Of a stretch of 64,000 nucleotides of DNA, positions 31,065-46,765 are shown one piece after another. Where the stretch lies: NCBI GenBank assembly GCA_964392455.1, contig CAYMPG010000003.1:802-64801 (forward strand), given 5' to 3'. Position 1 is the first letter of the stretch. Each line of letters begins with the position of its first letter. This DNA comes from an uncultured Clostridium sp. GTDB taxonomy: Bacteria; Bacillota; Clostridia; Christensenellales; CAG-138. The notes under the pieces are model-generated. The model had not been told where the DNA came from. It worked only from the letters and a program-made list of their open reading frames with translations, and searched no databases. Position numbers and translations under genes: made by a program.

Positions 31065-31155
31065 CACAGCCTGCCGCTAAATTACATTCATCAGTGAAAT
31101 TTAGAACATTTTCCGCATATATTTAGCATACCAACTTGACGGAGGTGTTTAAATT

Positions 31156-31388
31156 TTGCGTATATTGGTGATCAGTAAGCGCACGCTCATAATTGCTGCC
31201 ATAGTTCTTCTGGTGCTCATCGTTGCCATCCTGCTGCTGCTCAGCTTCGCCCCCGATGCGGCTGCCGCCAGCTCACGCCCCATTGAGGAATACGAGCTGG
31301 AAGTCCTTGCAGGGCAAAAAAAAGAGCTGCCCATCTACAGCGTAGACCGCAGCGATAAAAAAATAGCCCTTACCATTGATGCAGCATG
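31156..31388 (+). pseudogene. 5' fragment (codons 1-77) of a split NodB-type, PdaB-like polysaccharide deacetylase gene
   Basis: The TTG start lies 8 nt after GGAGGTG. An N-terminal TM anchor is followed by 'PIYSVDRSDKKIALTIDAA'. After 31388 the frame continues into unrelated sequence for 7 codons and stops (31408-31410). The missing remainder is found at 43770..44345. Confidence 0.85.
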
Positions 31389-31407
31389 TGCTGCGGCTCA
31401 AATGTGG
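31368..31407. other. attL junction of the inserted element (crossover at or near TG 31387-31388)
   Basis: The host half is 'ccattgatgcagca', then TG, then the element half 'TGCTGCGGCTcaAATGTGG'. The 7 bp CAGCATG (31382-31388) is repeated at 43765-43771. Confidence 0.8.
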
Positions 31408-31424
31408 TAACCGCCGCCCATTAC

Positions 31425-31458
31425 AAAACCCCGCCGAATATCGGTGGGGGTATTTTTC
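31425..31458. terminator. Bidirectional hairpin terminator just inside the element's left end
   Basis: CCCCGCCGA (31429-31437) pairs with TCGGTGGGG (31441-31449). A T-run follows on the plus strand, and TTTTG follows on the minus strand. Confidence 0.6.
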
Positions 31459-31516
31459 TTTCCCTCGTCAAAGCACCTCTGCCCCAGCGTAAGGCCACTA
31501 ATGTGTCATCAAAATC

Positions 31517-32212
31517 GTTTAAGACCCCTCTGGAATTACACAGCTCTCAAACGCGGCGGCGTTCATGGCGTAGTATTCTACGGTTTAAGACCCCTCTGGA
31601 ATTACACAGCTCTCAAACATGACAAGCTCTTTCATGCGGACTTGCTTTGTTTAAGACCCCTCTGGAATTACACAGCTCTCAAACAGACGCTGGAAGAAGC
31701 AAGGGCACGCTTCGGTTTAAGACCCCTCTGGAATTACACAGCTCTCAAACTGCCGAGCCTTATGTTATCGAGAAAGATGAGTTTAAGACCCCTCTGGAAT
31801 TACACAGCTCTCAAACGGTGGCTGAGGCCGCTCCTCTTTCTCCGGTGTTTAAGACCCCTCTGGAATTACACAGCTCTCAAACGGAGCCATCCTTCCAAGC
31901 GAGCTTGACCCGGTTTAAGACCCCTCTGGAATTACACAGCTCTCAAACAAGAACTGAATATAACGAGCCTTAAAGAAAGTTTAAGACCCCTCTGGAATTA
32001 CACAGCTCTCAAACTATTTTTTATGCATTTTCTTTTTCTTATTTGTTTAAGACCCCTCTGGAATTACACAGCTCTCAAACAACCCCCCAAAGCACCTTCC
32101 GCATAGGCTCGTTTAAGACCCCTCTGGAATTACACAGCTCTCAAACGAGCCGACCTCTCAAAGGCTATCCGTGATGGTTTAAGACCCCTCTGGAATTACA
32201 CAGCTCTCAAAC
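31517..32212 (-). CRISPR. CRISPR array: 11 identical 36-bp repeats and 10 spacers of exactly 30 bp
   Basis: The plus-strand repeat is GTTTAAGACCCCTCTGGAATTACACAGCTCTCAAAC at 31517, 31583, 31649, 31715, 31781, 31847, 31913, 31979, 32045, 32111 and 32177. In the transcribed (minus) orientation it is GTTTGAGAGCTGTGTAATTCCAGAGGGGTCTTAAAC, a type II-A-like repeat. Confidence 0.98.
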
Positions 32213-32301
32213 CTCAAATTTGAAAATCGGCCCAGCCAGCCGTGTGTACTTCCAAAGGAACACCTGTGTCTTTATTATACTGTAAAACCATTCTTTTGCA
32301 A
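32213..32301 (-). promoter_or_regulatory. CRISPR leader with candidate promoter
   Basis: This is the 89-bp interval between the csn2 stop and the first repeat. On the minus strand, TTGCAA (32301-32296) is followed by a 16-nt spacer and TATAAT (32279-32274). Confidence 0.6.
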
Positions 32302-32967
32302 CTATATTTCACATAAATCCCTGTCTATAATTGTGCGCCGCTCACCGCTCAGCAGCGGATGCTCACTCCCCTCTATCATAAGTATTCTATGCTTGCGGGG
32401 GCATGTGGTATAAAAGAAATCTGTCAGCTCCTCATCTGAAAAATAGCTTCTTAAATTAACAAAGATAAACAGCTTTTCCCGCTCAAATTCTGCCACCATA
32501 TCCATATAGCTTATTATTGCATCAATATCATTTTCAGGTGCTTCCTCCACAGCAAGGTTTGCCTGTTTTAAAAAGGATGCTATGGTCAGCTTATCGCTAT
32601 CAAAGGTAAGCGGGTATTCTCCGCACAGCTCTGTCAGCAATTGCTCTATACCTGATAATACCAGGTGGTAGCGCTCAAAGTATTCGGATTCCATGGCCCT
32701 GCTCTCTATTTGGGATATTATACGGGTAAGCAGCGTCTTTTTATTGCAGGGGAAGGGAACTATCTCTGTAAACATTTCAGCGTGCTTTGAAATGCTCAGC
32801 AGCTTGCCTTCTGATGAAAGCACGCAGGTTCCCGGTTCATCACAAAGCTGACGGCGTATGTCCTTTATGAGGCTGCGGAAGGCACTTTGATTTTCAATCA
32901 CTATCGAGCAGGCGCAGCCTTCCTCAAGGGGTACAGGCGGGCTATATTGAGAAAAAAGCAGCTTCAA
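32302..32967 (-). CDS. csn2: Csn2 (type II-A adaptation protein)
   Basis: 221 aa, positioned after cas2 and before the array. 'KLFIFVNLRSYFSDEEL' parallels S. pyogenes Csn2 'KLLIFINSGAFLTKDEV'. Confidence 0.85.
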   Translation of the reverse strand: MKLLFSQYSPPVPLEEGCACSIVIENQSAFRSLIKDIRRQLCDEPGTCVLSSEGKLLSISKHAEMFTEIVPFPCNKKTLLTRIISQIESRAMESEYFERYHLVLSGIEQLLTELCGEYPLTFDSDKLTIASFLKQANLAVEEAPENDIDAIISYMDMVAEFEREKLFIFVNLRSYFSDEELTDFFYTTCPRKHRILMIEGSEHPLLSGERRTIIDRDLCEI

Positions 32968-33284
32968 AGAATCACCAGCCTTTCATCGCTAGTTACCACA
33001 TCTGTTTCAAGCCTGCCCACCAGATATTCCATGCCTGCGAATTGCTTTTCCGTAACGGTGAGCATCTGTACCAGGCCTGCCGGCGGCCTGTTTTTGCGTA
33101 CGGTATCCATTGCCGCCTTGCCTGCACCGGCATTTATCAGCAGGCGGCAGTATACCGACTCCTGCATCATTATAAACCCATTGCTTATCAGCGCCTTGCG
33201 AAAGCGCCGATAGTTTCGCCTGTCATCCGGCGTTTCTGTAGGCAGGTCAAAAAATACCAATACACGCATAAATCTGTAGCTCAT
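32964..33284 (-). CDS. cas2: Cas2
   Basis: 'MRVLVFFDLPTETPDDRRNYRRFRKALISNGFIMMQESVY' is typical of Cas2. It overlaps the cas1 stop and the csn2 start. Confidence 0.95.
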   Translation of the reverse strand: MSYRFMRVLVFFDLPTETPDDRRNYRRFRKALISNGFIMMQESVYCRLLINAGAGKAAMDTVRKNRPPAGLVQMLTVTEKQFAGMEYLVGRLETDVVTSDERLVIL

Positions 33285-34153
33285 AGCAGTGGAAACTTTA
33301 TTGCTTCAATGTCATCGCCGTTCAGTGCATCGAATACGCTCTTTGTGTATATCTTTATCGAATTGAGCACGGTCTGTTCGCTGCCATTTATGCTTACTGT
33401 ATCATTAAGCACAGCAATTACCCTGTGCTTTTCCTCAGGGCTAAAATCCCATAGCTCCATGGACAGCACCCTTTTATCTATTAGCGGCCGATATGGCTCC
33501 ATAAGGTCACAGCTCAGATTAAACTGATTGAACACATTGTCATGAAACAGCCCAAATTGCGTTAGATACCCATTTGCCGTCACCTCCCTGTTAAATACAG
33601 AAAGGATTATCCCGTAGCCATAATCCAGCGCCGCATTTATCGGATCCGGCGAAGCCCTTCTAACAAAGTCCATTCCAAACAGCCCATTGAAATAAACCTT
33701 CGCTGCATGGCCCTCCCTGTTTGTCACATCGCCAAATTCAATCTCCCCAATATATCTGGTCAGCTTATCCGCCTCGTTTTCCCTGCCGGCAGCCCGCAAT
33801 ACGCCTGCCTGGTTTTTAATCTTTTCTGTAACTATGGCCGTCCATACGTGGCCCTTGGTCAGGTCTGTCCACTGCATTTGCTGCTTTACCTTGCGTGAAG
33901 TATCGTGGCTGCCATAATACGGGCAAAGCTCTGCGGTGGGATTTCTTTTCCCATCGCAGAACACCACCCTTATCTTTTTATTCACCAGCTCGGATAACAG
34001 ATACCCCGTCATGGATACCGCAGTGCTTTCTATCATCAGCAGAGCAATCTCATCCATAAACACCCGCCTGGTCTCCTCGCCCCGTACCACAAGGTAGCCC
34101 ATTTTATAGTCCAGCTTGCATCTGCTGGAAATCACCACCGTGCGCCAGCTCAT
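33281..34153 (-). CDS. cas1: Cas1 (type II)
   Basis: 290 aa with 'GYLVVRGEE', 'NAALDYGYGIL' and 'HDNVFNQFNLSCDLMEPYRPLID'. Confidence 0.95.
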   Translation of the reverse strand: MSWRTVVISSRCKLDYKMGYLVVRGEETRRVFMDEIALLMIESTAVSMTGYLLSELVNKKIRVVFCDGKRNPTAELCPYYGSHDTSRKVKQQMQWTDLTKGHVWTAIVTEKIKNQAGVLRAAGRENEADKLTRYIGEIEFGDVTNREGHAAKVYFNGLFGMDFVRRASPDPINAALDYGYGIILSVFNREVTANGYLTQFGLFHDNVFNQFNLSCDLMEPYRPLIDKRVLSMELWDFSPEEKHRVIAVLNDTVSINGSEQTVLNSIKIYTKSVFDALNGDDIEAIKFPLL

Positions 34154-34157
34154 ATCT

Positions 34158-37100
34158 TTACAGCAGCGTCAGCAGGTTTATCGACGCCTTCTCATACAGA
34201 CCCGATGGCGATTGATCTATTATGCGAACGTCTGAGTAGCTCTTCTTCCAGTTCGAAAGGCTTGAGCTTAATGTAGGCACCCCTGCCTTTCCAACACCGC
34301 CTATGGCTGTAAAGTCACTTCCACCGCCATTCCTGCTGAATACAACAAGTATTTCAGACAGGATTTTAATTTGCTCATCAGGAGCTAAGCCAATAAACTT
34401 CTTCCGTCCGTTCACGAGCGTATCTATCACGTTGCTGACTGCAGGCCGCTTGTTGAATGGATATGCCGACAGCTTCTGCGTGAGCACATCGTATAGCTCT
34501 ATATTCTTTTCAGGTGTCAGCTTATCATAATCGGCATTCAGCTTGAGCTGCTGATTATCCCTGCGTTTATTCTGGAATGACTCTATGCGCTTAATGTATC
34601 TCTCATCCTCCGGCTCCAGCCGCAGCGGCATCAATGGTGATACAAGCAGCAGCTTTCCGCCGCTGGCTTTTCCGGACAGAGCCACACGGAAGCCGTCCAG
34701 CGACAGAATGGTATTTACCCTGAGTATGCGGGCTTCCATCGGCAATTCCACGCTATCAACAGCCTTGCCGATGACTTTTTCTATGGCCGCCCTGGTAACC
34801 TCTCTGGCTGCCGCATAGCTTTCAGCAAACTTTGCTGCCATTATCAGCTCAATAGGAACTATCATCAGCTCGCTTTTTTTACCCAGATAATACTTTGCCA
34901 GCACGAAGAACGTGGCTGTAGGCTTTCTGTATCCACCATACTTCTCAGGTGGCAGGTTGTTTTTGCGGGGCAGCAGTTCGCTTTTTAATGTAGCGCCCAT
35001 TGGCTGCTGATCATACAGCGAGCCTTTGCGGCAGAATGCATACCGTGTTACGTGGATATGGTTCTTCTGCACTATTCGCTTGACCCTGCCGATATCTGCC
35101 TCTCCGCGCCATACGCATCCGTTTTTCCCTACCGGATGGTCAAATATCTCCTTTGTCTTCATGCTGTATTTCTGATCCAGCCTGAAGTAGTTTTTATTGA
35201 ATTTTTCATGGTATACGTTGCCTACCACCACATTCAGGTAAGCATCCTTGGCATGGTGCAAATCATTCACCGTGCGGCATTTCAGCATTTCAAATTCATG
35301 ACGAAAATCAGCTACCAGCCCAGCCTTTACGTACACTATCTCGGTATCAGGATAACGCTCCTTAAGGATAGATGTGACTGCCTTGGTGGACTGTCGGGTC
35401 TCTACCAGCTGGCGCTGTATAAAGCCCATCAGCTCATCATCGGTAAACTGCGTGGTTCTGGTAAGCCTGCGATACTTTTCTTCGGTAATAAGATTCTTAT
35501 CATGCAGCTTTTTCCAGAACACGCCCATGCGGCTTCTTATATCCGCCTTAATCGGGTATTTGTCCCCTTTATCTCCGTTACACTCAGAACGACACAGCAC
35601 CTTGTTGTTGAGTATACTGTCATCCTTTACCTTGCACTGGGGATAAATGTGATCCACGTCATAGATTTTTTGATCCGATAAATGTTCCAGCGCAATAGGC
35701 TCCCCGCTATACATACACTTGCCCAGCTGCATAAAGTAAAGGTACAGCTTGTCGCTTTGCAGGGCGTTATCGTCCTTTGTCTCCAGCAGGTTTTTCAGTT
35801 CACGTACTTCGCTCTCACTAAACTCCTTATACGCTTCCAGTATCTGAGTGCGGCGTGACTTTGTGCGCTTTCCCTTTTGTTCCTCGTTGGCTCCCCGTGC
35901 CATTTCTACAAATATCCTGCTGGGTGGCGCTCCCAGGGCTTTCACAACGTCCTTTACCACATCAAGCGTGCGATATATCTGACGCCGTACCGTATTGGAT
36001 AAATACAGCTCATCCATCCGTTTGGACAGGCTCTTTGGGTTTTCTCTATAATACTCGGTTACTTCATTTTTGATATTATCTGCAAATGTGAACTTATCCG
36101 TCAGCAGCTCCATGATGGTATAGTTGGTTTCCCACATAGCCTGCAGCATGGTGAATACCTGGCCCGTACCCGAATTCCTTTCCATTCCTTCAATTTCACA
36201 GAGGAGTCTGCGTGAAAGCCTCCCGAAGTCCTTAAACTTCTGATTGGAAAGGTATTTGGCATCTTCCGTGCATATATTGGGAAATTCTTTTGATATCCAT
36301 CGGATAAAGCGTGCCTTGTCCTCGGTGCAGGTGATGCGCTCTATAATCTGCTCCGCCTGATCCACCGTTAGCATTCCTGCATCCAGGAGCTTCCGGAAAG
36401 CATGCCATGGTTGCAATGAAGACTTTATGCCCTCAGTATCCACTCCGCTCAGTATATCGGAGCTGAGCATGTATCCTTCGCTTATGCAGAACTCCTTCAG
36501 TGCTTTAAAGGTTACACGTTTTTTTCTTTCAAATAGCTCACGGTATATGCTTTGCTTCTGTTCTACAGTGATTGGGATGCCATTTATTTTTATAGGATTG
36601 ATTTCATTAAGAACAGTAAACTTTGTATAATACAGCGAATTCTTGGGCAATACATACTCCGAAGGGAGATATGTACAGCGGCCAATCATATTATGAATAA
36701 ACCTATCCTCGCTCTTGTCCAGATCCACCATATCCTCAAAATTCCACGGGTATATCCTGCCTGCCTTTCTTTCCAGCCAGGCATAGCTGCTGCGATTATT
36801 CAGCGGCCCTACATAGTATGGAATTCTAAACCTGAATACGGATATTATCTTTTCAGATACAGTAAGCCCGTCGCTATCCCTTTCCCTGAGAAATGGTAGA
36901 TATTGCTCTGCATTTTCCAGTATTTTCTTCAGCTCCACCAGATAAAGCTGATATGGTATGACACGGTTGTCTGTGTCCTTCTGCTTCGGCATAAATGTAT
37001 ACATCTCCAGCCGGGCAAGCATATCATCATATTCTGCTTTGTCAGCCTGCTGCACATCAATATTCTTTACTATTTTCTTTATATAATCGCAAAAGTCCGT

Positions 37101-38243
37101 TTTTTTCGCATATTTGTCCGTCTTCTTTCCTTTGCCAGAGGAATGGTGCGAATATGCACAGTAATTCTTTTCTGTTGCGTCATTAAACACTTCATCGTAT
37201 TTACCCGGTGCGTATTTTTTAACAAAGCCTTTTAGGTAAGCAAGGTCGGCTTTATGCTGCTGGTATATTTTTACCTTGGCGCTGGATATATACTTTTCCT
37301 CCTGAAGAACATCGGTAAGCACAGACCAATCGTACAATTCCTTCAGCTTGCGTACCAGCTCTGCATCATCGCCCAGCTGCATAAGTACAGACTCCAATTT
37401 CCCTTCATCGCCGCCGAGATCTATGGACTCAGCACTTGCATACTCGTCCGCCTTATGCGGGAAAAGCTTTCCCGGCATCACCTTGCCCCCGCACAAAAGC
37501 GATATCATGCCTGAGCGAGATATTATCGGAGCCGCCTTATCCTCATCATCAAGGTGCATATCGGTCGGCTTTTTGCCATCAAATAAAAGCTCATTAAATG
37601 CTTTCACCTTATCGCTTATGCGAAGCTTTGTTTTGAGTATGCGGGCAAAGTCCTCTACGTTACAATACCAGGGCTTTTCCCCATCAAACCAGTTTATAAA
37701 GCCATCATATATTTCGGATATATCAGTAGCAGCCTCTACGTTATCCTCGCTGACCGAGCTGAGAAAATGCCCTCTATGAGCCACCAGCCATGCACAAGCA
37801 ATATATACCAGCCTCACATCATGGGGTTCGTGTGATTCCATCAGGTCAACGATAAGGTGGTGAATAGTTGGATAGGCCTTATAATAGTCCTTTTCACTAT
37901 AGTCAGCATCATTAAAGTACACACCCTCAGAGCCGGTTGTGGACTTGTCCTCCTGCCATAATGCACTTTCGCGTATGCGGATGAAAAATTGCGGATCTTT
38001 AGCCGTTATCGGTACAGCTAACAATTCCTGAATAAGCTGTACCCGCTGCTTACGCCTATCAACACGCCGCCGTGCGGTACGATTTGCGCGGCGTTCTTCC
38101 GAAAGGGCGGCACTATCAAAAGTCATGACACCAGCCATGGGCTCTCCTTTAAATTTTTGGAGGTTGTATTCCGTATCGGTAACAGCATAGCCTACAGAGT
38201 CAGTGCCACAATCCAATCCCAGATAGTATTCTTTGTTTTTCAT
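34158..38243 (-). CDS. cas9: Cas9 (type II-A, 1361 aa), nuclease motifs intact
   Basis: RuvC-I is 'YYLGLDCGTDSVGYAV'. HNH is 'DVDHIYPQCKVKDDSILNNKVLCRSECNGDKGDKYP'. The RuvC-III region is 'NDLHHAKDAYLNVVVGN'. 'IPYYVGPL' is also present. Confidence 0.97.
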   Translation of the reverse strand: MKNKEYYLGLDCGTDSVGYAVTDTEYNLQKFKGEPMAGVMTFDSAALSEERRANRTARRRVDRRKQRVQLIQELLAVPITAKDPQFFIRIRESALWQEDKSTTGSEGVYFNDADYSEKDYYKAYPTIHHLIVDLMESHEPHDVRLVYIACAWLVAHRGHFLSSVSEDNVEAATDISEIYDGFINWFDGEKPWYCNVEDFARILKTKLRISDKVKAFNELLFDGKKPTDMHLDDEDKAAPIISRSGMISLLCGGKVMPGKLFPHKADEYASAESIDLGGDEGKLESVLMQLGDDAELVRKLKELYDWSVLTDVLQEEKYISSAKVKIYQQHKADLAYLKGFVKKYAPGKYDEVFNDATEKNYCAYSHHSSGKGKKTDKYAKKTDFCDYIKKIVKNIDVQQADKAEYDDMLARLEMYTFMPKQKDTDNRVIPYQLYLVELKKILENAEQYLPFLRERDSDGLTVSEKIISVFRFRIPYYVGPLNNRSSYAWLERKAGRIYPWNFEDMVDLDKSEDRFIHNMIGRCTYLPSEYVLPKNSLYYTKFTVLNEINPIKINGIPITVEQKQSIYRELFERKKRVTFKALKEFCISEGYMLSSDILSGVDTEGIKSSLQPWHAFRKLLDAGMLTVDQAEQIIERITCTEDKARFIRWISKEFPNICTEDAKYLSNQKFKDFGRLSRRLLCEIEGMERNSGTGQVFTMLQAMWETNYTIMELLTDKFTFADNIKNEVTEYYRENPKSLSKRMDELYLSNTVRRQIYRTLDVVKDVVKALGAPPSRIFVEMARGANEEQKGKRTKSRRTQILEAYKEFSESEVRELKNLLETKDDNALQSDKLYLYFMQLGKCMYSGEPIALEHLSDQKIYDVDHIYPQCKVKDDSILNNKVLCRSECNGDKGDKYPIKADIRSRMGVFWKKLHDKNLITEEKYRRLTRTTQFTDDELMGFIQRQLVETRQSTKAVTSILKERYPDTEIVYVKAGLVADFRHEFEMLKCRTVNDLHHAKDAYLNVVVGNVYHEKFNKNYFRLDQKYSMKTKEIFDHPVGKNGCVWRGEADIGRVKRIVQKNHIHVTRYAFCRKGSLYDQQPMGATLKSELLPRKNNLPPEKYGGYRKPTATFFVLAKYYLGKKSELMIVPIELIMAAKFAESYAAAREVTRAAIEKVIGKAVDSVELPMEARILRVNTILSLDGFRVALSGKASGGKLLLVSPLMPLRLEPEDERYIKRIESFQNKRRDNQQLKLNADYDKLTPEKNIELYDVLTQKLSAYPFNKRPAVSNVIDTLVNGRKKFIGLAPDEQIKILSEILVVFSRNGGGSDFTAIGGVGKAGVPTLSSSLSNWKKSYSDVRIIDQSPSGLYEKASINLLTLL

Positions 38244-38280
38244 ATTGACATCCTCCGGAAAGATATGGTATTTTGGTCAT

Positions 38281-38399
38281 GTAAGAACAGTCCCCTCTGG
38301 ACTTACACAGCAAGTTCAAATAAGATTTCATCGAAATCGTCAGCTTGTCTGACCGTACAAGAGTACGACTTAAAGATGCCCGATTGGGTGTCTTTTTTT
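38281..38399 (+). ncRNA. tracrRNA (divergent from cas9)
   Basis: The anti-repeat 'CCCCTCTGGACTTACACAGCAAGTTCAAATAAG' is complementary to the crRNA repeat with the usual bulge. It continues like the Sp tracrRNA 'AGCAAGTTAAAATAAGG'. It ends in the hairpin GCCCGATTGGGTG plus T7 (38392-38398). Upstream are TTGACA (38245-38250) and TGgTATTTT. Confidence 0.75.
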
Positions 38400-38698
38400 G
38401 TTTGTTTTCGCAGGGGTTCTTTCAGATAGACGGTTAATTCTTTTTTCGATATGGTAAGATGTGTGTTGATTATACTCTATTTTTCTCCATATCGCAACAA
38501 ATTATCTTGTGGCAGCTCGTATAATTTTGCTTTTATTTTACTCCTGTACATTTTTTCCTGTTCGGATGCATTTTATCAACAATTATAATGTATTTTTGTC
38601 AGGTAAGCACACAGCCCTAAAGCCGAACCCGAGCAGCCTATTTATGTGCCTTGAAAGGCGCTCCCCGCCATAACCATATTTTCCCTGTACTCCGGGCT

Positions 38699-40204
38699 TT
38701 ATTCGCCCCACCTGTAGCGTATTTGGACAACGCCATTTGGAAATACCTTTACACAATCAAGTATTATGCCTATCGTTGCCCGGTCCAGCTTTATAATGGC
38801 TCTTTCATTCGCCAGCCTGTTCAGCCACTGTGCTGTACAGGGAGCGCTTTCTTCTTCGCAGATGGTCTGCCGCAGCTTCTCCATGCGATGCTCCAGGGCT
38901 GCCTGAATTTCTGTAAATTCATTACGGTTCAGCTTATTATTCTTATATCTCTCATAGGCATACCGCTTATCCATGGCAAGGCCGGACATGGCAAGCGCCA
39001 GCGCTGCGAGGCTTTTCTCTTTTCTGCGCCGTGCGTCCTCTGCCATACTGCCGCATATACCGGCTACGTCTGCTTTTTCAATTAGGCGATTTACATCCTC
39101 CAGCACAATGCGGCTCAGCTTTGCTTCATATATTCTGTGGCTGCCGCAGGCACATGGCCCGCCAGTTTTATACCGTGTACAGAAATATGCCCCTCTACCA
39201 TGGTAATTTACCAGCTTCATCCTGCCGCCGCAGGCTCCGCAGTATATCAGCCCAGCGAAAAGGCTGCCTGACCCACGAAATGCCCTGCCAGTGCTGCGCC
39301 CGGCAAGCATTGCCTGCGCCTGCTCCCATTCCTGCCGCCCGATGATTGCGGGATGAGTATCCCGATGGATGATCCATCGCTCCCGTGGAATGGAGAAAGC
39401 CCTATCATGCATGCTGCTCTTTCTGCTTTTGCCTTCAGGCGTATCCCCTGCATATACAGGGTCACGCAGCAGCCTATCCACGGAAAATATGCTCCACGCC
39501 CAGTTTTTTGTATTGGGTGCAGCCCTTTTATAAAACCCGCTTTCTGCCCGCCTTACCCCCGGGCAGGGTATTTCCCGCCGGTTCAGTTCGCTTGCAATGG
39601 CGGTTTTGCCCATGCCCCCAAGATACATGGCGTATATCTGCCTTACAGTTTCGCTGTCGCCATTTGGAATAAGGCTGCCATCTCCACCGGCTGCTTTGTC
39701 ATAGCCATACGGCGGCGATGGGCAAAGGTACTTCCCCTGGGCTCTGCGGGTGCTTAAGGCCGTACGCACCTTTTTTGAAATATCCTCTGCATACTGGGCA
39801 TTCATAAGGTTAACAACTGGAAGCCTTATGCCATCATATGGGCTCGTGACGCTATCCATATTGTCATTGATGGCGATAAAGCGCACGCCAAGGCGGGGAA
39901 ATACCCGCTCAAGATATTCACCCGCCAGTATAAGGTCGCGGCCAAAGCGGCTAAGGTCCTTTACCACCACGCAATCTATGCAGCCCGCCTCGATATCCCG
40001 AATCATCTCATTAAAGGCAGGCCGGTCAAAGCATACGCCGGAATAGCCATCATCGGAATAATGCCCTGCTATGCTCAGCTCTTCGCTGCGGAGGCAATAC
40101 TCCTCCAGTAGCTGCCGCTGCACCCGTATGCTTTCGCTGGGCGCATCCTCCCCATCCTCCCTGGATACCCTTTCATACAGAGCCGCCCTGTATACCTTCT
40201 GCAT
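38699..40204 (-). CDS. Large serine recombinase (501 aa)
   Basis: The N-terminal resolvase domain has 'AALYERVSREDG..SIRVQRQLL..DDGYSG' and 'VVVKDLSRFGRD'. A recombinase domain and the zinc ribbon 'CGACGGRM..FCTRY..CACGSHRI' follow. The C-terminal coiled-coil tail is TnpX/TndX-like. Confidence 0.9.
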   Translation of the reverse strand: MQKVYRAALYERVSREDGEDAPSESIRVQRQLLEEYCLRSEELSIAGHYSDDGYSGVCFDRPAFNEMIRDIEAGCIDCVVVKDLSRFGRDLILAGEYLERVFPRLGVRFIAINDNMDSVTSPYDGIRLPVVNLMNAQYAEDISKKVRTALSTRRAQGKYLCPSPPYGYDKAAGGDGSLIPNGDSETVRQIYAMYLGGMGKTAIASELNRREIPCPGVRRAESGFYKRAAPNTKNWAWSIFSVDRLLRDPVYAGDTPEGKSRKSSMHDRAFSIPRERWIIHRDTHPAIIGRQEWEQAQAMLAGRSTGRAFRGSGSLFAGLIYCGACGGRMKLVNYHGRGAYFCTRYKTGGPCACGSHRIYEAKLSRIVLEDVNRLIEKADVAGICGSMAEDARRRKEKSLAALALAMSGLAMDKRYAYERYKNNKLNRNEFTEIQAALEHRMEKLRQTICEEESAPCTAQWLNRLANERAIIKLDRATIGIILDCVKVFPNGVVQIRYRWGE

Positions 40205-40206
40205 GG

Positions 40207-41778
40207 CTATGCATCATCCCGAGAGCAGGCCCCGGCAATATCCGAAAAGCGATAGCATATCTTTACACAGTCATCATTGTACACATATATGCCCTCCACC
40301 GTTGCAGCAAGCGTCACCCGGTCCAGCGATTCTATTCGCCTCTGCTCAATGAGCTGTCCTGCCCATTTTTTACTTGGCAGGGCTTGCTGCTCCACAATCT
40401 CATTCTCCACCTGTAGCTGCCGCCTGAGGGCTTCCTCGCCTGCCTCATACTCTGCCCTGTATGAAATATAATCCTCGCCGGAAAGCAGCCCGGCCTTATA
40501 ATCCTCATAAAGGCTGCGGCGCAGTCTCTCCATTCGCTCAATGGATTTTTGTATCCGCTCTTTTTCTGCCGTGTGCCGGGTGGGCGGCACTGTCTTTGGT
40601 ATTCTTATGCTGCTCATATCAGGTATGGCTTCAAGCATGGAGTTCAGATCGCCAAGTAATATGGCCGCCACAGTGCTGCGCCATATCCTGCTGCCGGAAC
40701 AGGCCCCTGTGCCATATCGCTCATAGCTGCCGCAGGAATATTTCGCCTTTTCCCCCTTGCCACGGGACACCATGCTCCGGCCGCACAGCCCGCATTTTAT
40801 AAAGCCCCTGAGCGGATCCTCCAGCACGGGGCCATGGCTCCTCTCCCTCACCTTAAGCAGCCGCTGTACCCTCTCCCACTGTTCAGCCGAGACCACCGGG
40901 TCATGGGTGTTTTGCTTAACTATCCATTTATCCCGCTCCTGCAGCCGGGCTTTGCCATGCATGGCTGGCCGGCAGTACTTTCCCTGCACCATGTGGCCTG
41001 CATATACGGGATTGCACAGTATCCTGTGAATGGTGGAATACGTCCAGTAGGTGGTACCATCCAGCTTAAGTCCGTTTTTATAGTTTTCCCCCATAAGCCG
41101 CTTGTATTGGCTGGGGCAGGGTATACCCTCATCATTCAGTCGACGGGCAATGGCATCCTTGCCCTGGCCCCCTTCAAACATATCGTATATCCTCCTCACC
41201 ACCCCTGCTGCCCCCTCGTCAATCACAAGATGGCTATGGGCCTCAGGGTCACGGCAATAGCCATAGCTGCAAAACGCCCCTATAAACTCACCCCGTCTGC
41301 GCCTTGTGTCGAAGGAGCTCCTTATCTTCCCGGAAATATCCCTGGCGTATTGAGAATTGAATATATTCTTTATTGGCAGCATCATGTCATATGCTCCATT
41401 GATGCTGTCCACATTGTCATTTATGGCGATAAAGCGCACGCCCTTCTGGGGCAATATGCGCTCAAGATACCTGCCGGTATCTATATAATCCCTGCCAAAG
41501 CGGCTCAAATCCTTTACGATGATACAGTTTATCCTGCCTTCCTCCACAGCCTCCATCATCTGCCTGAATGCAGGCCGTTCAAAGCTGGTGCCGGTAAAGC
41601 CGTCATCCACATAGTGGCAGGCTATCTCCATATCCTCCGCCTGATGGCAGTAGCTTTCCAGCATATTTAGCTGGCTGGTAATGCTGTCGCTCTCCGCCTT
41701 ATCCCCATCCTCACGGGAGAGCCTTGCGTACAATCCGCATCTGTAAATCTGCCGCCCGGGCTTTGCCATATCCTGCAC
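40207..41778 (-). CDS. Large serine recombinase (523 aa), tandem paralogue
   Basis: 'CGLYARLSREDGDKAESDSITSQLNML..DDGFTG', 'IIVKDLSRFGRD' and the zinc ribbon 'CGLCGRSM..YSCGSY..GACSGSRI' are present. Its stop is 2 nt before the downstream recombinase start. Confidence 0.9.
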   Translation of the reverse strand: MQDMAKPGRQIYRCGLYARLSREDGDKAESDSITSQLNMLESYCHQAEDMEIACHYVDDGFTGTSFERPAFRQMMEAVEEGRINCIIVKDLSRFGRDYIDTGRYLERILPQKGVRFIAINDNVDSINGAYDMMLPIKNIFNSQYARDISGKIRSSFDTRRRRGEFIGAFCSYGYCRDPEAHSHLVIDEGAAGVVRRIYDMFEGGQGKDAIARRLNDEGIPCPSQYKRLMGENYKNGLKLDGTTYWTYSTIHRILCNPVYAGHMVQGKYCRPAMHGKARLQERDKWIVKQNTHDPVVSAEQWERVQRLLKVRERSHGPVLEDPLRGFIKCGLCGRSMVSRGKGEKAKYSCGSYERYGTGACSGSRIWRSTVAAILLGDLNSMLEAIPDMSSIRIPKTVPPTRHTAEKERIQKSIERMERLRRSLYEDYKAGLLSGEDYISYRAEYEAGEEALRRQLQVENEIVEQQALPSKKWAGQLIEQRRIESLDRVTLAATVEGIYVYNDDCVKICYRFSDIAGACSRDDA

Positions 41779-41781
41779 AGA

Positions 41782-41913
41782 TTATGCCTCCGGCTGCCTG
41801 TCCTGGTGGGCCTTTATCAGCTCTATCACCACCTGCTCAGGGCTCTTTTCGCCGGAAAAAAACCTTACCACCTTTATGCCGCCTTCCATTTCATCGTTTG
41901 CCCGGGTATCCAT
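41782..41913 (-). CDS. Small ORF (43 aa) immediately upstream of the recombinase pair; possible directionality/accessory factor
   Basis: The product is 'MDTRANDEMEGGIKVVRFFSGEKSPEQVVIELIKAHQDRQPEA'. GGAGGAGG lies about 7 nt before the ATG, and the stop is 3 nt before the recombinase ATG. It is below the ORF-track length cutoff and was found by hand translation. Confidence 0.45.
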   Translation of the reverse strand: MDTRANDEMEGGIKVVRFFSGEKSPEQVVIELIKAHQDRQPEA

Positions 41914-42014
41914 AGAGCGCCTCCTCCTTTTTTCTTTTATAAATCTCTATTTCGCCCATACGGCCCATATGAATGGTTTCACAAATAAAATCCCTGGCCT
42001 GTGCTGTTTATATG

Positions 42015-42050
42015 CAAAAACCCCACGGGCTGCATTTGCACCCATGGGGC
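42015..42050 (-). terminator. Rho-independent terminator after the cNMP-binding genes
   Basis: On the minus strand, CCCCATGGG-loop-CCCGTGGGG is followed by TTTTTG. Confidence 0.65.
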
Positions 42051-42085
42051 TTTGCTAAATTCAATGGGCTGTCTACGGGCTGGGG

Positions 42086-42586
42086 TCAGTATATGCGCCC
42101 ATTGATGTATGTATCCGATATGGCCTCCACATAGTCGTTTATAAACTTGCCAACCTTTTCCCAGAACATTCCCTCCCGGGGCTTATCTTCCTCCTCCTTC
42201 TTTACGGCCTCTGCCACCGCCCGGCAGGTCTCCAGGTAATCTCTGGTAAGCTCCCGCGTGCGCCGGCTCAGGTTTTTCATAATGCACAGCAGCGCCTCAG
42301 GGTCATCTCCAAAGTAATCTGCAAAGGCCTCCCCGGTGACCAGCCTGGTTTCAACATCATCCAGCGCAACTGCCGTGGCAGATCGGCGCATGGAGTCCAC
42401 CAGGCCAATTATGCCCACAGTGGCGCCGGGGCCGCCCTTTACCTCGGTAAGCTTGAATTCATCCGGCATGCCGTAGTTTTTATATATGCCCACCGTGCCG
42501 CTTCGCAGGTCATACATCCACATTTCGAAGCTGCCCTCTTTATATATGACATCGCCCTTTTTAAACAGGCGGGTGGTATCTTCCAT
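42086..42586 (-). CDS. Cyclic-nucleotide-binding-domain protein without a DNA-binding domain (166 aa)
   Basis: 'FKKGDVIYKEGSFEMWMYDLRSGTVGIY..VGIIGLVDSMRRSATAVAL' is a Crp-like beta-barrel. It is followed only by a helical tail. ATG at 42586 lies 1 nt after the upstream stop. Confidence 0.75.
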   Translation of the reverse strand: MEDTTRLFKKGDVIYKEGSFEMWMYDLRSGTVGIYKNYGMPDEFKLTEVKGGPGATVGIIGLVDSMRRSATAVALDDVETRLVTGEAFADYFGDDPEALLCIMKNLSRRTRELTRDYLETCRAVAEAVKKEEEDKPREGMFWEKVGKFINDYVEAISDTYINGRIY

Positions 42587-42587
42587 T

Positions 42588-43013
42588 TTACTTTTCCTCC
42601 ACTGCCTTTTCCCCTTGTGAGCTAAGAGCCTCTGCAAGGGCACTGCGGGCCTCCATGTAATCTCTGGTGATATCACGGATGCGCCTGCACATATTCTGTA
42701 TAATATCCACCACCCTCTCAGGCCGCTCATTCAGATAAAACCTGAAGGTCTCTCTTGTGATTATCTCAAGCCTCGTTTCCCCATCCATGGCTATTGCCGT
42801 GGCGCTGTGAGGCACCTGATCCACAAAGCTCATTTCTCCAAACACCTCATCGCCACGGCGCAGAGCCAGCATTTTTTCATTCTCCGTGCCGTAGTCCACA
42901 TATATGCCCACGCTGCCCCAGCGTATATCATACATACACTCGGCAGGCTCTCCCTGCCTGAATATTATCTCTCCCTTTTTATAGGTTCTATATTCCCTGC
43001 TTGATGCTGCCAC
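42588..43013 (-). CDS. Cyclic-nucleotide-binding-domain protein without a DNA-binding domain (141 aa), paralogue
   Basis: 'YKKGEIIFRQGEPAECMYDIRWGSVGIYV..FGEMSFVDQVPHSATAIAM' is present. It shares the helix 'RRIRDITRDYMEA' (versus 'RRTRELTRDYLET') with its paralogue. The GTG start is uncertain. Confidence 0.7.
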   Translation of the reverse strand: MAASSREYRTYKKGEIIFRQGEPAECMYDIRWGSVGIYVDYGTENEKMLALRRGDEVFGEMSFVDQVPHSATAIAMDGETRLEIITRETFRFYLNERPERVVDIIQNMCRRIRDITRDYMEARSALAEALSSQGEKAVEEK

Positions 43014-43058
43014 CCTGCAAATTCCTGCCTTTCATAATGCTGCCTGTCAAATGCCCTT

Positions 43059-43592
43059 TTACACGCGCCTGCCCATATCATAGGCATCCGCCATGGCCTT
43101 TGTACCCTTTATTTCTCCCTTTTCATAAACGCCCATGCCGCATATCACGCCCATTTCCCTTGCGCCCTCTATGCAGTCAGCATAGCCTCTCAGGCAGGCC
43201 AGCGGCGTATCCGCAGAAGCCAGCTCCTCATCCGCCGCAGTCACTATATAATACAGATCCTTGTCCTTTACCTCAGTCCAGCGGGCGACAGTTCTATCAA
43301 TAAGTGCCTTAAGCTGGGCGCTGATGGAATAAAAGTAGACGGGGCTTGCAAGCAGGATAACATCTGCATCTATCATCTTTTGCAGCACCTGACCCATATC
43401 GTCATCTATAACGCAGCTTCCTTTTTTACAGGCATAGCAGCCCCTGCAAAACCCTATATTTTTCTCGGCCACCCTTATCTTCTCCACGGTATGGCCCATT
43501 TCCATTGCACCCCGCATAAATTCATCGCAGAGCATATCAGAATTGCCGCCCTTTCGGGGACTGCCGGACAGTATCAATACATTTTTACCCAT
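43059..43592 (-). CDS. Flavodoxin-like fold NAD(P)H-dependent FMN reductase/iron-sulfur flavoprotein family protein
   Basis: 'KNVLILSGSPRKGGNS' and 'DADVILLASPVYFYSISAQLKALIDR' are present. GGAGG lies 8 nt before the ATG at 43592. Confidence 0.8.
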   Translation of the reverse strand: MGKNVLILSGSPRKGGNSDMLCDEFMRGAMEMGHTVEKIRVAEKNIGFCRGCYACKKGSCVIDDDMGQVLQKMIDADVILLASPVYFYSISAQLKALIDRTVARWTEVKDKDLYYIVTAADEELASADTPLACLRGYADCIEGAREMGVICGMGVYEKGEIKGTKAMADAYDMGRRV

Positions 43593-43661
43593 TTTATTGC
43601 CTCCACTTATCATACTGGCTGCATCACACAGCCTCTGCCCCCATAGCTCGAGCGCACCTTA

Positions 43662-43691
43662 AATATACAATGAAACGCCTCTGCATTTCAA
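43662..43691 (-). promoter_or_regulatory. Candidate promoter for the flavodoxin/cNMP operon, just inside attR
   Basis: On the minus strand, TTGAAA (43691-43686) is followed by an 18-nt spacer ending in TG and then TATATT (43667-43662). Confidence 0.5.
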
Positions 43692-43744
43692 CAGTCTTCC
43701 GTCTGAAGCCTGTCTTAAAATGCCCCATATTCCATACATGCTTT

Positions 43745-43785
43745 TCCATCCACATTATCAGCCTCAGCATGGGAAGACGACAAGA
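43745..43785. other. attR junction of the inserted element (crossover at or near TG 43770-43771)
   Basis: The element half is 'CCACATTatcAGCCTCAGCA', then TG, then the host half 'ggaagacgacaag', which resumes the deacetylase reading frame. Confidence 0.8.
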
Positions 43786-44345
43786 CTCCATTCATACTGG
43801 AAACGCTGGATAAATACGGCATAAAGGCCACATTCTTCCTCTGCGGTTTTTGGGTGGAGGCATACCCCGATGAGGTAAAGCAGATATTCGAGGCCGGCCA
43901 CCAGCTTGGCAATCATACCTCCACTCACCCTCACATGAACCAGCTCTCGGTCTCCGAGATAAAAAAGGAGCTCACCCATTTTGACGACATGGTGGAAAAG
44001 CTCACCGGCCAGCGCACCACCGCCTTTAGAGCCCCCTACGGCGAATATAACGACACCGTTATCACCACCGTAAGGGATATGGGGTATGAAGTATACCAGT
44101 GGAGCATTGACACCATCGACTGGCGGGAGGAGCGCAGCGCACAGACCATACTGGATACGGTGCTGCCAAAGCTGCACGATGGCTGCATAATCCTCTGCCA
44201 CAACAATGGCTATAAAATAAAGGAGTATCTTCCTGCGCTCATTGAAGCAGCCCAGGGACAGGGATACAAATTCGTTACGGTAAGCGAGCTCACGCTCAGC
44301 GGCAATACCATAATAGATGTAAACGGGGTGCAGAAGGCGGCATAA
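43770..44345 (+). pseudogene. 3' fragment (191 codons) of the split PdaB-like polysaccharide deacetylase gene
   Basis: The frame reads 'WEDDKTPFILETLDKYGIKATFFLCGFWVEAYPDEV..GHQLGNHTSTHPHM..RAPYGEYN..WSIDTIDW..ILCHN'. These are NodB motifs 2-5. The in-frame stop upstream at 43704-43706 lies inside element sequence. The ORF-track ATG at 43854 is internal. Confidence 0.85.
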
Positions 44346-44731
44346 TAGTCTCCCCCACTATATCGTCCAAACGCAGTCACATTATTGCTGCAAAGTAGCC
44401 TGTTTGTCACTTTATAGGAAGGGGCTGGAATACTCTTCCAGTCCCTAGATATGTTCTTAAATAAATCTGCGGCCAGTCATGGGCTGCCTCCCACCTCAGA
44501 TTATCCACAACATTATCCGGAGCTTTACCTTGTCTTTATACTAATAAACAGAGAACGTCATGTCTTTTTTCGGCAGCATGCACAAATAATCTTCTAACGG
44601 CAGCTTCGAAATACGCATATAGCCAGCAATGCCTATTACCACATATATCTGAACAAACTCAAAAGGAGCGTCCCTTTATGACACTCCTTTTTTATTTCTA
44701 ACTGTCAGCACATGGTCTAATAATAATATCC

Positions 44732-45682
44732 TTACATCTCCGCCCATCCATGCAGCTTCTTTAATCCACACTCTGCCACAGCCGCACCACCCATAAGACC
44801 GCCAAACTGGCCAAACCGGGTAGGCTGAATGACTAGATGACGATTTGCATTTTTGTAAATGGACTGATCAATCTTTTGCAGCATGGCCTCTTTAAACAAA
44901 TCAAATGACAGGCTCACACCTCCGCCTATTATCACCTTGCTGGGATTTAATATATTGCATGCCGCAGCCAACGCCTTGCCAATATAGTATCCCTCCAGGC
45001 GATACGTTTCCAGCGCTGTTTCATTGCCTCTACGTGCAAGGCCAGCTATAAGCTCTGCATTTGCCGGTATACCATCTATCAGCTCAGGGCCACCCAGCTC
45101 AATAAAGTTTCTCGCAATGGCAGGCCCGGCAGCATACATTTCCAGGCAGCCCCTTGCGCCGCAATTGCATCGTCTCCCGCCATCCACTACAGTAACGTGG
45201 CCAAGCTCGCCTGCATTTCCCGCCATACCGTAGTATATTCTGTCTTTCATAAACACTGCGCCGCCGCAGCCATTTGAAACAGTAAGATATACAAAGTCCG
45301 TTACATCGCGGCATTGGCCATACAGTCTTTCTGCCAAAGCGCATGCCTGACCATCATTGTCAATATAGGCCGGCAGATTAAATGCCTCCGTGAGTTCGGC
45401 TGCCACGTTTATGCCTCCCACACCTGAAAAACACGCCTCTACCCATACGCCATTGGCCGGGTCTGCCAGGCCCGGGATAGTTACCCCTATTGCCACAGGC
45501 AGCAGTTCACCATGTATTTTCAAAAGCTCTTTGGCAGAGGCTATTATGCTGTGCATTATTCCTCTCCCTGTAAGCTCTTTCCATTCGCCTCTGATACTGT
45601 CCACGATGTTTCCATAGCCATCCACCAGCCCAACAATATATTTTGAGCCGCCTATGTCTATAGATAATACAACATCTCTCAT
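44732..45682 (-). CDS. ROK family sugar kinase
   Basis: 'VLSIDIGGSKYIVGLVD', 'DNDGQACALAE' and 'GHVTVVDGGRRCNCGARGCLE' are present. There is no N-terminal HTH. Confidence 0.85.
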   Translation of the reverse strand: MRDVVLSIDIGGSKYIVGLVDGYGNIVDSIRGEWKELTGRGIMHSIIASAKELLKIHGELLPVAIGVTIPGLADPANGVWVEACFSGVGGINVAAELTEAFNLPAYIDNDGQACALAERLYGQCRDVTDFVYLTVSNGCGGAVFMKDRIYYGMAGNAGELGHVTVVDGGRRCNCGARGCLEMYAAGPAIARNFIELGGPELIDGIPANAELIAGLARRGNETALETYRLEGYYIGKALAAACNILNPSKVIIGGGVSLSFDLFKEAMLQKIDQSIYKNANRHLVIQPTRFGQFGGLMGGAAVAECGLKKLHGWAEM

Positions 45683-45775
45683 GTACTCTCCCCCCACCCA
45701 TTAAGACACGCAAGCCCCGGTATGCCCGAGGCTTGCAAACCTGTTCTGTAATTTTTATTCTTTCACAATTTACCC

Positions 45776-46765
45776 TTATTCTGTTTTTAGGGCCGAATCG
45801 AATGCGATATCAGAGGGTTCAAAGTTTATCTTTTTTGTAAACTCATAAGCCTCAGTAGCTCCAAAGGTGCGCTCCATTCCACTATCCTCCCATTCCACAG
45901 AAAGGGGACCATGATAGCCCATCTGGTTCAGTTCGCGAATGATGCCATCAAAATCCACATTGCCATGGCCCAGAGACACAAAGTTCCAGCCGCGGCGGGT
46001 ATCGCCAAATTCTATATGGCTGCCCAGTATACCTGCCCGTCCGTCCAAAGTGACCTTAACATCTTTCATATGTACATGATATATCCTGTTTGAAAAATCG
46101 CGCAGGAATACGCAGGGATTTACCCCCTGCCATACAAGATGAGAGGGATCAAAATTAAGTCCCAGGGTAGGACGGTGATCAAACACTTCAAACAGCTTCT
46201 GTGTGCTGTAATAATCAAATGCTATCTCCGTAGGATGCACTTCCAACGCAAACTTCACGCCACATCTGTCAAATTCGTCAAATATGGGAGTCCACAGCTC
46301 TTTTATCTTCGCAAAGCCGGCATCTACCATACTCTGGGGGGTCTGCGGGAAAGAATACCAATAATACCATATGGGAGAGCCCAAAAAACCGGTAACTACC
46401 TTTATGCCCAATTTATGTGCGGCCCTTGCTACCACCTTCATTTCCTCTATAGCCCATTCCCTTATGGCCTCTGGCTTGCCCGAAAGAGCCGCAGGGGCAA
46501 AATTATCCAGGCGTTCATCCCAGTTATCACCCACGCACTGTCCTACAAGATGTGCACCAAGTGCCCAGCACTGTAAGCCATATTTTGCCAGGGTAGCCTT
46601 AAAGCTTTCAGCATAGCCGTCATCATCCACGACCTTATGTACGTCCAGATGGGCATGACATGCTATCTCCAGCCCGTCATAACCGATCTCACTTGTAAGC
46701 TTACAAAGTTCCTCCAGGGACATATCGCCAAACTGTCCTGTTGTTATGGTGATGGGTCGTTTCAT
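45776..46765 (-). CDS. Sugar phosphate isomerase/epimerase (xylose isomerase-like TIM barrel)
   Basis: 329 aa with 'FALEVHPTEIAFD' and 'IYHVHMKD' typical of the AP endonuclease 2/TIM-barrel family. Confidence 0.8.
   Translation of the reverse strand: MKRPITITTGQFGDMSLEELCKLTSEIGYDGLEIACHAHLDVHKVVDDDGYAESFKATLAKYGLQCWALGAHLVGQCVGDNWDERLDNFAPAALSGKPEAIREWAIEEMKVVARAAHKLGIKVVTGFLGSPIWYYWYSFPQTPQSMVDAGFAKIKELWTPIFDEFDRCGVKFALEVHPTEIAFDYYSTQKLFEVFDHRPTLGLNFDPSHLVWQGVNPCVFLRDFSNRIYHVHMKDVKVTLDGRAGILGSHIEFGDTRRGWNFVSLGHGNVDFDGIIRELNQMGYHGPLSVEWEDSGMERTFGATEAYEFTKKINFEPSDIAFDSALKTE

Follow-up and report, generated by a model that had tools for sequence, protein, structure and literature searches.

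A serine-recombinase element with a TG-centred attachment site splits a PdaB-like deacetylase gene in uncultured Clostridia and is probably excised to restore it

The DNA analysed here, a 64,000-nucleotide (nt) stretch from an uncultured Clostridium sp. (the window, to whose positions all coordinates refer unless another locus is named), contains a PdaB-like polysaccharide deacetylase gene that is split by an element of 12,383 bp (31389-43771). The 5' segment of the gene (31156..31388, + strand) comprises codons 1-77 plus the TG of the Trp78 codon, and the 3' segment (43772..44345, +) follows directly behind the element. Joining of 31388 to 43772 yielded an in-frame protein of 268 amino acids that has a membrane helix at its N terminus and a polysaccharide-deacetylase domain of the NodB type. 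Along its entire length (100%), this protein aligned without gaps to homologues that are uninterrupted, with identities of up to 87%. The junction lies inside the invariant motif I-D-A-A-W, where the TG begins the Trp78 codon. No intact deacetylase of the same species was found among 5.8 billion protein clusters, the closest match being 87% identical. All open reading frames (ORFs) of the element are accounted for by a CRISPR-Cas system, two large serine recombinases (LSRs), here termed LSR-A and LSR-B, a 43-amino-acid ORF, two cyclic nucleoside monophosphate (cNMP)-binding proteins, and a flavin mononucleotide (FMN) reductase. None of the ORFs of 31389-43771 encodes a structural virion protein or a function in lysis, replication, or conjugation.

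The left and right junctions, attL (31368-31410) and attR (43749-43790), are identical in exactly 7 bp, the sequence CAGCATG at 31382-31388 and 43765-43771. Joining of the element ends (43750-56, 43760-69, TG, 31389-98, and 31401-07) reconstituted an attachment site, attP, with the sequence CCACATT-ATC-AGCCTCAGCA-TG-TGCTGCGGCT-CA-AATGTGG, which extends over 41 bp with TG at its centre. The inner arms AGCCTCAGCA and TGCTGCGGCT match at 9/10 positions and the outer arms CCACATT and AATGTGG at 7/7, with spacers to the inner arms of 3 and 2 nt, respectively. The P half-site at the right end of the element (43749..43771, +) consists of (T)CCACATT-ATC-AGCCTCAGCA plus the TG crossover at 43770-43771. 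The P' half-site at the left end (31389..31412, +) reads TGCTGCGGCT-CA-AATGTGG-TAACC and is homologous to the P' arms of related elements, with a TG(C/T)GG motif 14 nt from the TG. The B half-site of attL (31368..31388, +) includes the shared core 31382-31388 and ends in the TG crossover at 31387-31388. The host site attB is asymmetric, with about 3/11 arm matches as counted from the sequence, and its identity to attP is restricted to CAGCATG. After excision, the predicted junction sequences are CCACATTATCAGCCTCAGCATGTGCTGCGGCTCAAATGTGG for attP and CCTTACCATTGATGCAGCATGGGAAGACGACAAGACTCC for attB. A preliminary description of this locus had reported the CAGCATG repeat with its coordinates, a near-palindromic attP from the joined ends (inner arms 9/10, outer arms 7/7), and a much less symmetric attB; all three were reproduced, with the addition that the spacers to the outer arms differ by 1 bp.

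Related elements were found at the same codon. A metagenome scan with an LSR-B alignment yielded 80 loci with 39-53% identity, and a further relative from a distant host, L094, brought the number to 81. In 33 of these, the recombinase lies beside a deacetylase gene that is split exactly at ..DAA|W... L094 encodes a small ORF and homologues of LSR-B (58% identical) and LSR-A (43% identical), and 345 bp beyond the recombinase pair a deacetylase 5' fragment ends in ..KIALTIDAA, with the junction ACCATCGATGCGGCA-TG-AGCTGAGGGCTGATTGCGGTAAT. Both element ends were available for 10 related loci, where the elements measure 5.6-10.2 kb. After in-silico removal, the codon-78 junction was in frame in 10/10 of them; three of the reconstituted ORFs ran to a natural stop, that of L172 ran off the end of the locus, five stopped at a second insertion, and that of L133 was truncated about 30 residues past the junction. 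The half-sites are homologous across the family, with CCGCA-N14-TG-N14-TGCGG as the family pattern and CCACA-N15-TG-N14-TGTGG in the window. A half-site scan allowing up to three mismatches gave no match in the closest single-recombinase relatives, L007, L008, and L011, so their targets differ.

The symmetry of attP is centred on the TG throughout. With the axis at TG, 12/20 ungapped arm positions match in the window attP, compared with at most 6/20 when the axis was moved by 1-4 bp. The attP palindromes of the 10 related elements have 13-19/20 arm matches at TG and at most 8 at shifted axes, and TG is thus the optimal axis in 11/11 two-ended elements, the window included (12-19/20). The cores shared by attL and attR vary from member to member (CAGCATG, CGTGGGG, CATGGGG, and CATGGGGGAATG) and overlap only around the TG; the crossover is therefore fixed at TG. 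For a chance test, two window positions were joined at random 100,000 times, and each join was scored with 8 allowed centres. An inner arm of at least 9/10 was obtained in 37/100,000 joins and, together with a 7/7 outer arm, in 1/100,000. The native window contains four inner palindromes of at least 9/10, none of which (0/4) has outer arms. A coincidental symmetry, or a crossover elsewhere in the 7-bp repeat, could be argued from the fact that the 7-bp junction identity alone cannot locate the cut, but the rarity of the architecture among random joins and the constant TG axis and core overlap of the family make this highly improbable. As a separate observation, the 13-mer GGTAACCGCCGCC from the outer flank of the window P' arm (31406-31418) occurs also in L129 (minus strand, 16575-16587), where it abuts the TG of the P arm; this could be coincidence or a remnant of rearranged arms.

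LSR-A (38699..40204, - strand; 501 amino acids) and LSR-B (40207..41778, -; 523 amino acids) are encoded in tandem, 2 nt apart. Both contain the Pfam domains PF00239 (Resolvase), PF07508 (Recombinase), and PF13408 (Zn_ribbon_recom), all above the gathering scores. For the catalytic serine motif near the N terminus, the residues R19-L20-S21 of LSR-B (..YARLSRED..) are invariant in an alignment with eight relatives, and LSR-A has ..YERVSRED... The best solved-structure match of both recombinases was the catalytic domain of TnpX (2MHC; E values of 1e-29 and 1e-27), followed by SprA of SPbeta (E value of about 1e-14). Scores against the CcrA, CcrB, and CcrC models were far under the cutoffs of 700-900 bits, with best scores of 113 bits for CcrB and 89 for CcrC. 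Several searches were negative: exact-sequence look-ups of LSR-B, the flavodoxin, and the cluster representative P0121 gave no match, LSR-B as the only query retrieved no relative from species-representative genomes, and phage and plasmid collections contained none above 38% identity.

Of the two enzymes, LSR-B is probably the one that acts at this attP and attB, because 27 of the 33 elements at the deacetylase codon carry a single recombinase of the LSR-B type and because the near-symmetric attP fits a homodimer. A pair of LSR-A and LSR-B was seen only in the window lineage and L094, in decayed form in L008, and probably in two short contigs. LSR-A is probably accessory, though it is intact and constrained (dN/dS, the ratio of nonsynonymous to synonymous divergence, of 0.23, compared with 0.13 for LSR-B). 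A joint requirement for both, as for CcrA and CcrB on the staphylococcal cassette SCCmec, would agree with the adjacency of the two genes, with purifying selection on both, and with the recurrence of the pair. It is at odds with the predominance of elements that have the LSR-B type only, with attP arms of the kind expected for a homodimer, and with the low scores against the Ccr models; moreover, two of the three recombinases of the gin element are dispensable (PMC5595907). We regard joint action as improbable.

Directly upstream of LSR-B, the 43-amino-acid ORF (41782..41913, -; ..RFFSGEKSPEQVVIELIKAH..) is a candidate directionality factor or regulator, as judged from its conserved position. 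A small ORF upstream of the LSR-B relative is kept in L007, L011, L089, and at least 31 of 71 metagenome loci, and in L094 a 44-amino-acid ORF was called at this position. Copies of about 45 amino acids with the motif R-x-F-x-G-x-x-[ST]-x-E-x-[LV]-x-x-E-L-I-x-A-H stand directly upstream of the clade of LSR-B-type recombinases (L007, 9842-9979; L011, about 400-540; L094, 3874-4008; and many of L099-L174), and the small ORF is present with the element inside or outside the deacetylase gene.

Through near-identical proteins, contigs with 94-98% identity to the window were obtained from three other sequencing runs. L091, L092, and L093 contain cob genes, the 5' deacetylase fragment, and attL; L089 contains the 3' deacetylase fragment, attR, the cargo operon, and LSR-B; L090 contains the recombinases and the cas operon. 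The attL is identical in 4/4 genomes through 24 nt of the P' arm (31389-31412), the first substitution being at 31413. In L089, 23 nt of the P arm are identical to the window, and the 133 aligned nt just upstream have 15 changes; by itself, this conservation of the P arm is only suggestive (p of about 0.06). An assembly chimera might be suspected, as the contig was assembled from a metagenome and CRISPR repeats break assemblies. The independent assembly of attL or attR in four further contigs, from three other runs and at 2-6% divergence, reduces the probability of such an artefact to a negligible level. The preliminary description had further proposed an LSR-type attP architecture, a symmetry axis and crossover at TG, and element boundaries exact to the base. 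These proposals are upheld, the first by the Resolvase, Recombinase, and Zn_ribbon_recom domains, the 33 codon-matched relatives, and the homologous half-sites, the second by the TG axis of all 11 two-ended elements, and the third by the recurrence of this attL in three more samples and of this attR in one of the other samples. Ends lying elsewhere in related elements, which it had named as counterevidence, did not appear; 33 of the 81 related loci are split at the same codon.

The element was present in 4/4 sampled genomes. Between the window and the 94% identical lineage, the synonymous divergence (dS) of the host flank genes is 0.15-0.19 and that of the element genes 0.13-0.27. Flank and element are thus equally diverged, and the insertion is therefore older than the split of these lineages; by these values, the element appears to have co-diverged with its host. 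Over both deacetylase halves, the same comparison gave 20 synonymous and 3 nonsynonymous changes (binomial p of about 1e-10 against a neutral expectation of about 77% nonsynonymous), with 17 synonymous and 3 nonsynonymous changes in the 3' segment against L089. No stop codon or frameshift was gained in either half since the lineages split. The substitution pattern indicates that the split gene is under strong purifying selection. A gene that is constrained while permanently split must be re-joined, which would require precise excision.

We infer that excision is a regular, programmed event, because the element is fixed in the four genomes and the gene halves are constrained. Our overall interpretation, with a probability of roughly 0.8, is that an LSR element resides in the deacetylase gene, has its attP centred on TG, and is excised regularly to rebuild the gene. 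The portion of it that concerns the attachment sites and the recombinase is held with high confidence. In the proposed mechanism, dimers of LSR-B would bind the half-sites, the inner 10 bp or so being read by the recombinase domain and the outer TG(C/T)GG motif, 14-15 bp from the centre, by the zinc-ribbon domain. LSR-B would cut both strands at TG with 2-nt overhangs, and subunit rotation and religation would follow. Recombination of attP with attB would give the integrated state, and recombination of attL with attR in the presence of a directionality factor, for which the 43-amino-acid ORF is a candidate, would release a 12.4-kb circle and restore the gene. CRISPR-Cas9, LSR-A, and the flavodoxin/cNMP operon would ride along as cargo.

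Several observations weigh against this interpretation. Because of the 1-bp offset of the outer arms, the ungapped symmetry of attP is only 12/20. Two intact recombinases are present, and both may be needed. The 43-amino-acid ORF, the candidate directionality factor, matched no Pfam family. The best NCBIfam model of the deacetylase, PdaB (TIGR02764), gave 201 bits, which is under the equivalog cutoff of 237. Equal divergence of element and flanks could in principle also result from independent site-specific insertions of diverged copies. Neither an empty attB nor a circular attP form of the element was found in any collection searched; a degenerate 42-nt pattern for attP, attB, attL, and attR had no match in the JGI metagenomes or IMG/VR, and the fetched related loci contained no attP or attB forms. 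Finally, no sporulation genes were present in the window among the 20 flanking proteins checked.

The last two results would also be expected of an ordinary integrative island that has inactivated a dispensable deacetylase and is excised sporadically in connection with transfer. The turnover of cargo and the varied contexts of the relatives point the same way, as they indicate that the family is or was mobile. Against such an island stand the intact gene halves with their excess of synonymous changes in the very lineages that carry the element, the presence of the element in all four genomes and its co-divergence with the flanks, and the codon-78 junction that is in frame in every two-ended relative, the ORF of L133 being truncated further on. 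On balance, we consider an ordinary island unlikely.

Under programmed excision, the question arises in which cell the gene would be rebuilt. We lean slightly towards sporulation as the setting, with excision in the mother cell as it differentiates terminally, by analogy with skin in sigK, SPbeta in spsM, and gin in gerE. Excision in the mother cell only would explain both the fixation of the element and its vertical inheritance. In Bacillus subtilis, pdaB belongs to the sigmaE regulon (PMC4703394), and three polysaccharide deacetylases of Clostridioides difficile are under sigmaE control (PMC3789822). The sequence GCATATA (31114..31120, +), about 36 nt upstream of the deacetylase start, is a candidate -10 box of a sporulation-sigma (sigmaE/sigmaK-type) promoter. 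Of 66 homologous loci, 47 have a GCATAWR box (GCATA[TA][AG]) between -37 and -57, compared with 4.9% of random 80-nt windows. The box resembles the -10 element common to sigmaE and sigmaK promoters, a shared class that has been described (PMC3789822), and the sigma-factor assignment goes by this resemblance.

In skin (recombinase SpoIVCA) and SPbeta (SprA/SprB), an LSR excises the element precisely and rebuilds a sporulation gene of the mother cell; as only the mother-cell genome is edited, these elements are inherited vertically. Elements of this type are prophages or their relics of 14-134 kb, whereas the window element has no phage genes, and the sequence identity of its recombinases to SprA is low (E value of about 1e-14). 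A close precedent is gin, which splits gerE in Bacillus cereus ATCC 10987 (GirC/GirX) and, like the window element, is not a phage and interrupts a small conserved gene. It encodes three serine recombinases, one of which is in use, and its attachment sites share a 9-bp core that terminates, on its 3' side, in the predicted crossover dinucleotide; an imperfect 27-bp inverted repeat and an asymmetric attB are further features (PMC5595907). The gin element differs in its size of 28.6 kb, its Bacillus host, its target gerE, and the lack of CRISPR-Cas. Excision and the directionality factor of gin were shown experimentally, whereas excision of the window element is deduced and concerns a PdaB-like target in uncultured Clostridia.

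TnpX of the clostridial transposons Tn4451 and Tn4453 resembles the window recombinases as the best structural match of the catalytic domain, and it too forms a circular excision intermediate. TnpX transposes into many GA-containing targets with the crossover at GA. Unlike TnpX, the window element has a single highly specific target codon and a TG crossover. A type III-A CRISPR-Cas system is known from SCCmec of Staphylococcus aureus, a small non-phage cassette that is excised as a circle by serine recombinases (PMC10434264). SCCmec and the window element have in common a CRISPR-Cas cargo and two tandem recombinase genes. The staphylococcal cassette, however, enters orfX/rlmH at its 3' end and leaves the gene intact, whereas the window element splits its target, and the CRISPR type (III-A) and Ccr-family recombinases of the cassette differ from the type II-A system and the Ccr scores of at most 113 bits found here. 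The site of the window element is not TnpX-, TndX-, or CcrAB-like, and the element is closest to the intervening elements of sporulation genes, such as skin, SPbeta, vfbin, gin, and yin. It shares with these an ORF that is interrupted and restored by precise removal, and vertical inheritance with the gene constrained.

As split genes, a 2023 paper names sigK, spsM, spoVFB, and gerE and adds yabG. Full-text literature searches for a connection of a deacetylase with elements of this kind or with attB sites returned nothing relevant. The attachment-site architecture is textbook for LSRs, and excisable elements that split genes are already known; for CRISPR cargo, the nearest precedent is the type III-A system on SCCmec (PMC10434264). 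New are the deacetylase target, the breadth in uncultured Clostridia (human-gut, animal-gut, and other metagenomes), and the complete Cas9 cargo. With this, a polysaccharide deacetylase is added to the few genes known to be interrupted by excisable elements. The locus also provides a defined system with base-exact attL, attR, attP, and attB, a TG crossover, and LSR-B as candidate recombinase, to which the related elements add 10 further natural attP/attB pairs; LSRs with known sites are sought as tools for genome integration. More tentatively, and with somewhat less than even confidence, we propose that these elements form an undescribed, widespread family of serine-recombinase "gene switches" that occupy a codon of the catalytic motif in a PdaB-like spore-cortex deacetylase gene, their hosts being Clostridia of the gut and other habitats. 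Such switches would be passed on vertically, and their excision would be confined to the mother cell. They would serve as platforms for cargo, including a complete Cas9 system that would be kept in the spore germ line and deleted or circular in the mother cell, and some genomes would have two of them in one deacetylase gene, the second at ..QWDVD|SLDW...

The CRISPR-Cas side of the element begins behind a hairpin with a T-run (31425..31457, +), which lies just inside the left end and is terminator-like by its sequence. In L091 and L092, a G-to-A change in the stem still pairs with the opposite T. The stretch between the hairpin and the last CRISPR repeat (31458-31516) is almost unalignable with L091 and L092, with indels of 3, 6, and 7 nt; elsewhere, these lineages are 94% identical to the window. 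The CRISPR array (31517..32212, -) consists of 11 repeats of 36 nt and 10 spacers. It is followed by a type II-A cas operon (32302..38243, -), recognized by Pfam and NCBIfam matches, with csn2 (32302-32967), cas2 (32964-33284), cas1 (33281-34153), and cas9 (34158-38243), all on the - strand. Between cas9 and the recombinases, a repeat-like sequence (38289..38311; 21/23 match) presumably represents the anti-repeat of a tracrRNA (trans-activating CRISPR RNA). The set of cas9, cas1, cas2, csn2, repeat array, and anti-repeat corresponds to type II-A.

The other side of the element consists of the cargo operon on the - strand (42016..43694), with a terminator (42016-42053), two genes for cNMP-binding proteins (42086-42586 and 42588-43013), a gene for an FMN-reductase/flavodoxin-like protein (43059-43592), all three assigned by Pfam, and the upstream region u1 of the operon (43590-43694). 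In L003, a syntenic relative with 73-80% nt identity, the deacetylase gene is intact and is followed by xanthine-dehydrogenase genes, the same trio of two cNMP genes and the flavodoxin gene, and a ROK gene. The trio that lies inside the element in the window has 75.5% nt identity to these chromosomal genes of L003. Its dS against L003 is 0.9-2.1, and that of the deacetylase gene is 1.27. Outside the element, between the 3' end of the deacetylase gene and the ROK gene, the window contains a sequence with no gene attached, u2 (44478..44576, -), that appears to be a "ghost" of the promoter, ribosome-binding site, and ATG of a resident flavodoxin operon; its counterpart in L003 is at 12277-12387. 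By this trace, the resident chromosomal trio and the xanthine-dehydrogenase genes would have been deleted with u2 left behind. Both u1 and u2 are closer to L003 (z of 6.6 and 7.3) than to each other (z of 2.2), and a recent in-situ duplication as the source of the cargo operon was rejected on this ground. The trio is thus DNA of the host lineage that was captured into the element, because the L003 copy is chromosomal, the dS values match, and u1 and u2 are each nearer to L003. The element in this way illustrates how neighbouring host genes may be picked up. A search for another att pair, nested within the element and flanking the cargo operon, gave at best 11/20, a match at chance level.

The CRISPR-Cas system is cargo as well, its insertion having separated the left end from the recombinases. 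L094, the closest relative with paired recombinases, lacks CRISPR-Cas, its LSR-A and P' end being only 345 bp apart, and other family members carry transporters, glycosyltransferases, and regulators. The preliminary description had assigned the CRISPR-Cas side and the flavodoxin side to one mobile unit. This holds in so far as both belong to one excision unit; the unit itself is composite, the flavodoxin side being host-derived cargo that is chromosomal in L003 and CRISPR-Cas being absent from L094. In L111, a related element whose LSR is 48% identical, cas2 and a truncated cas1 (406-1183, -) lie by the P' end in the position and orientation of the window cas operon, and no CRISPR array was found there; these genes look like a relic of an earlier CRISPR-Cas cargo. 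In L094, the AT-rich region between LSR-A and the P' end (about 7100-7330) contains about six spaced TTAAC(A/G)(T/C)GATTTT-like units, with three exact matches at 33-bp spacing.

The intergenic region between flavodoxin and ROK in L003 (about 12378-12400) reads TTTCAA-CAGCATGTGC-AAATAATCC (TTTCAA-CAGCATGTGC-AAAT) and shares 10 nt with the attP core (CAGCA-TG-TGC). The match sits exactly where the homology to the element cargo ends (..TTTCAACAG|; window 43686-43694). An ancestral or secondary attB was considered, but the alignment score does not exceed the range of shuffled controls, and the match is left unexplained. On the host side of attR, the deacetylase stop codon of the 94% identical relative L089 (1-1377) is directly continued by the homologue of window position 57874 onwards. 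The window region 44347-57873, with the ROK gene, a sugar ATP-binding cassette (ABC) transporter, and isomerases, is thus a 13.5-kb indel between close lineages.

Further observations concern the deacetylase gene itself. In L010 (3353-8357) and L009 (721-2209), deacetylase genes with 85-86% identical proteins are located between the homologues of window 4789-5626 and 5716-6378 and not after the cobalamin operon; the position of the gene thus differs among lineages. The metagenome-assembled genome with the intact gene in L009 has a second, truncated copy in L041 (1-1141) that starts with ..IDAAWEDDKT. Ahead of this copy lie about 50 bp of unrelated sequence and a truncated DinB-like gene, and the 3.6-kb contig shows no recombinase. 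In eight loci (L095, L098, L104, L105, L106, L108, L115, and L121), the deacetylase gene is broken again at ..PIQWDVD|SLDW... At this second break in L105 (about 12510-12550), the homology to the intact genes of L113, L116, and L096 ends after CAGTGGGATGTGGA. The deacetylase gene may be a hotspot for such elements, with a second family of intervening elements at ..QWDVD|SLDW... In L105, L106, and L108, a different serine recombinase, 26-27% identical to LSR-A, is encoded 4-7 kb downstream of the second break.

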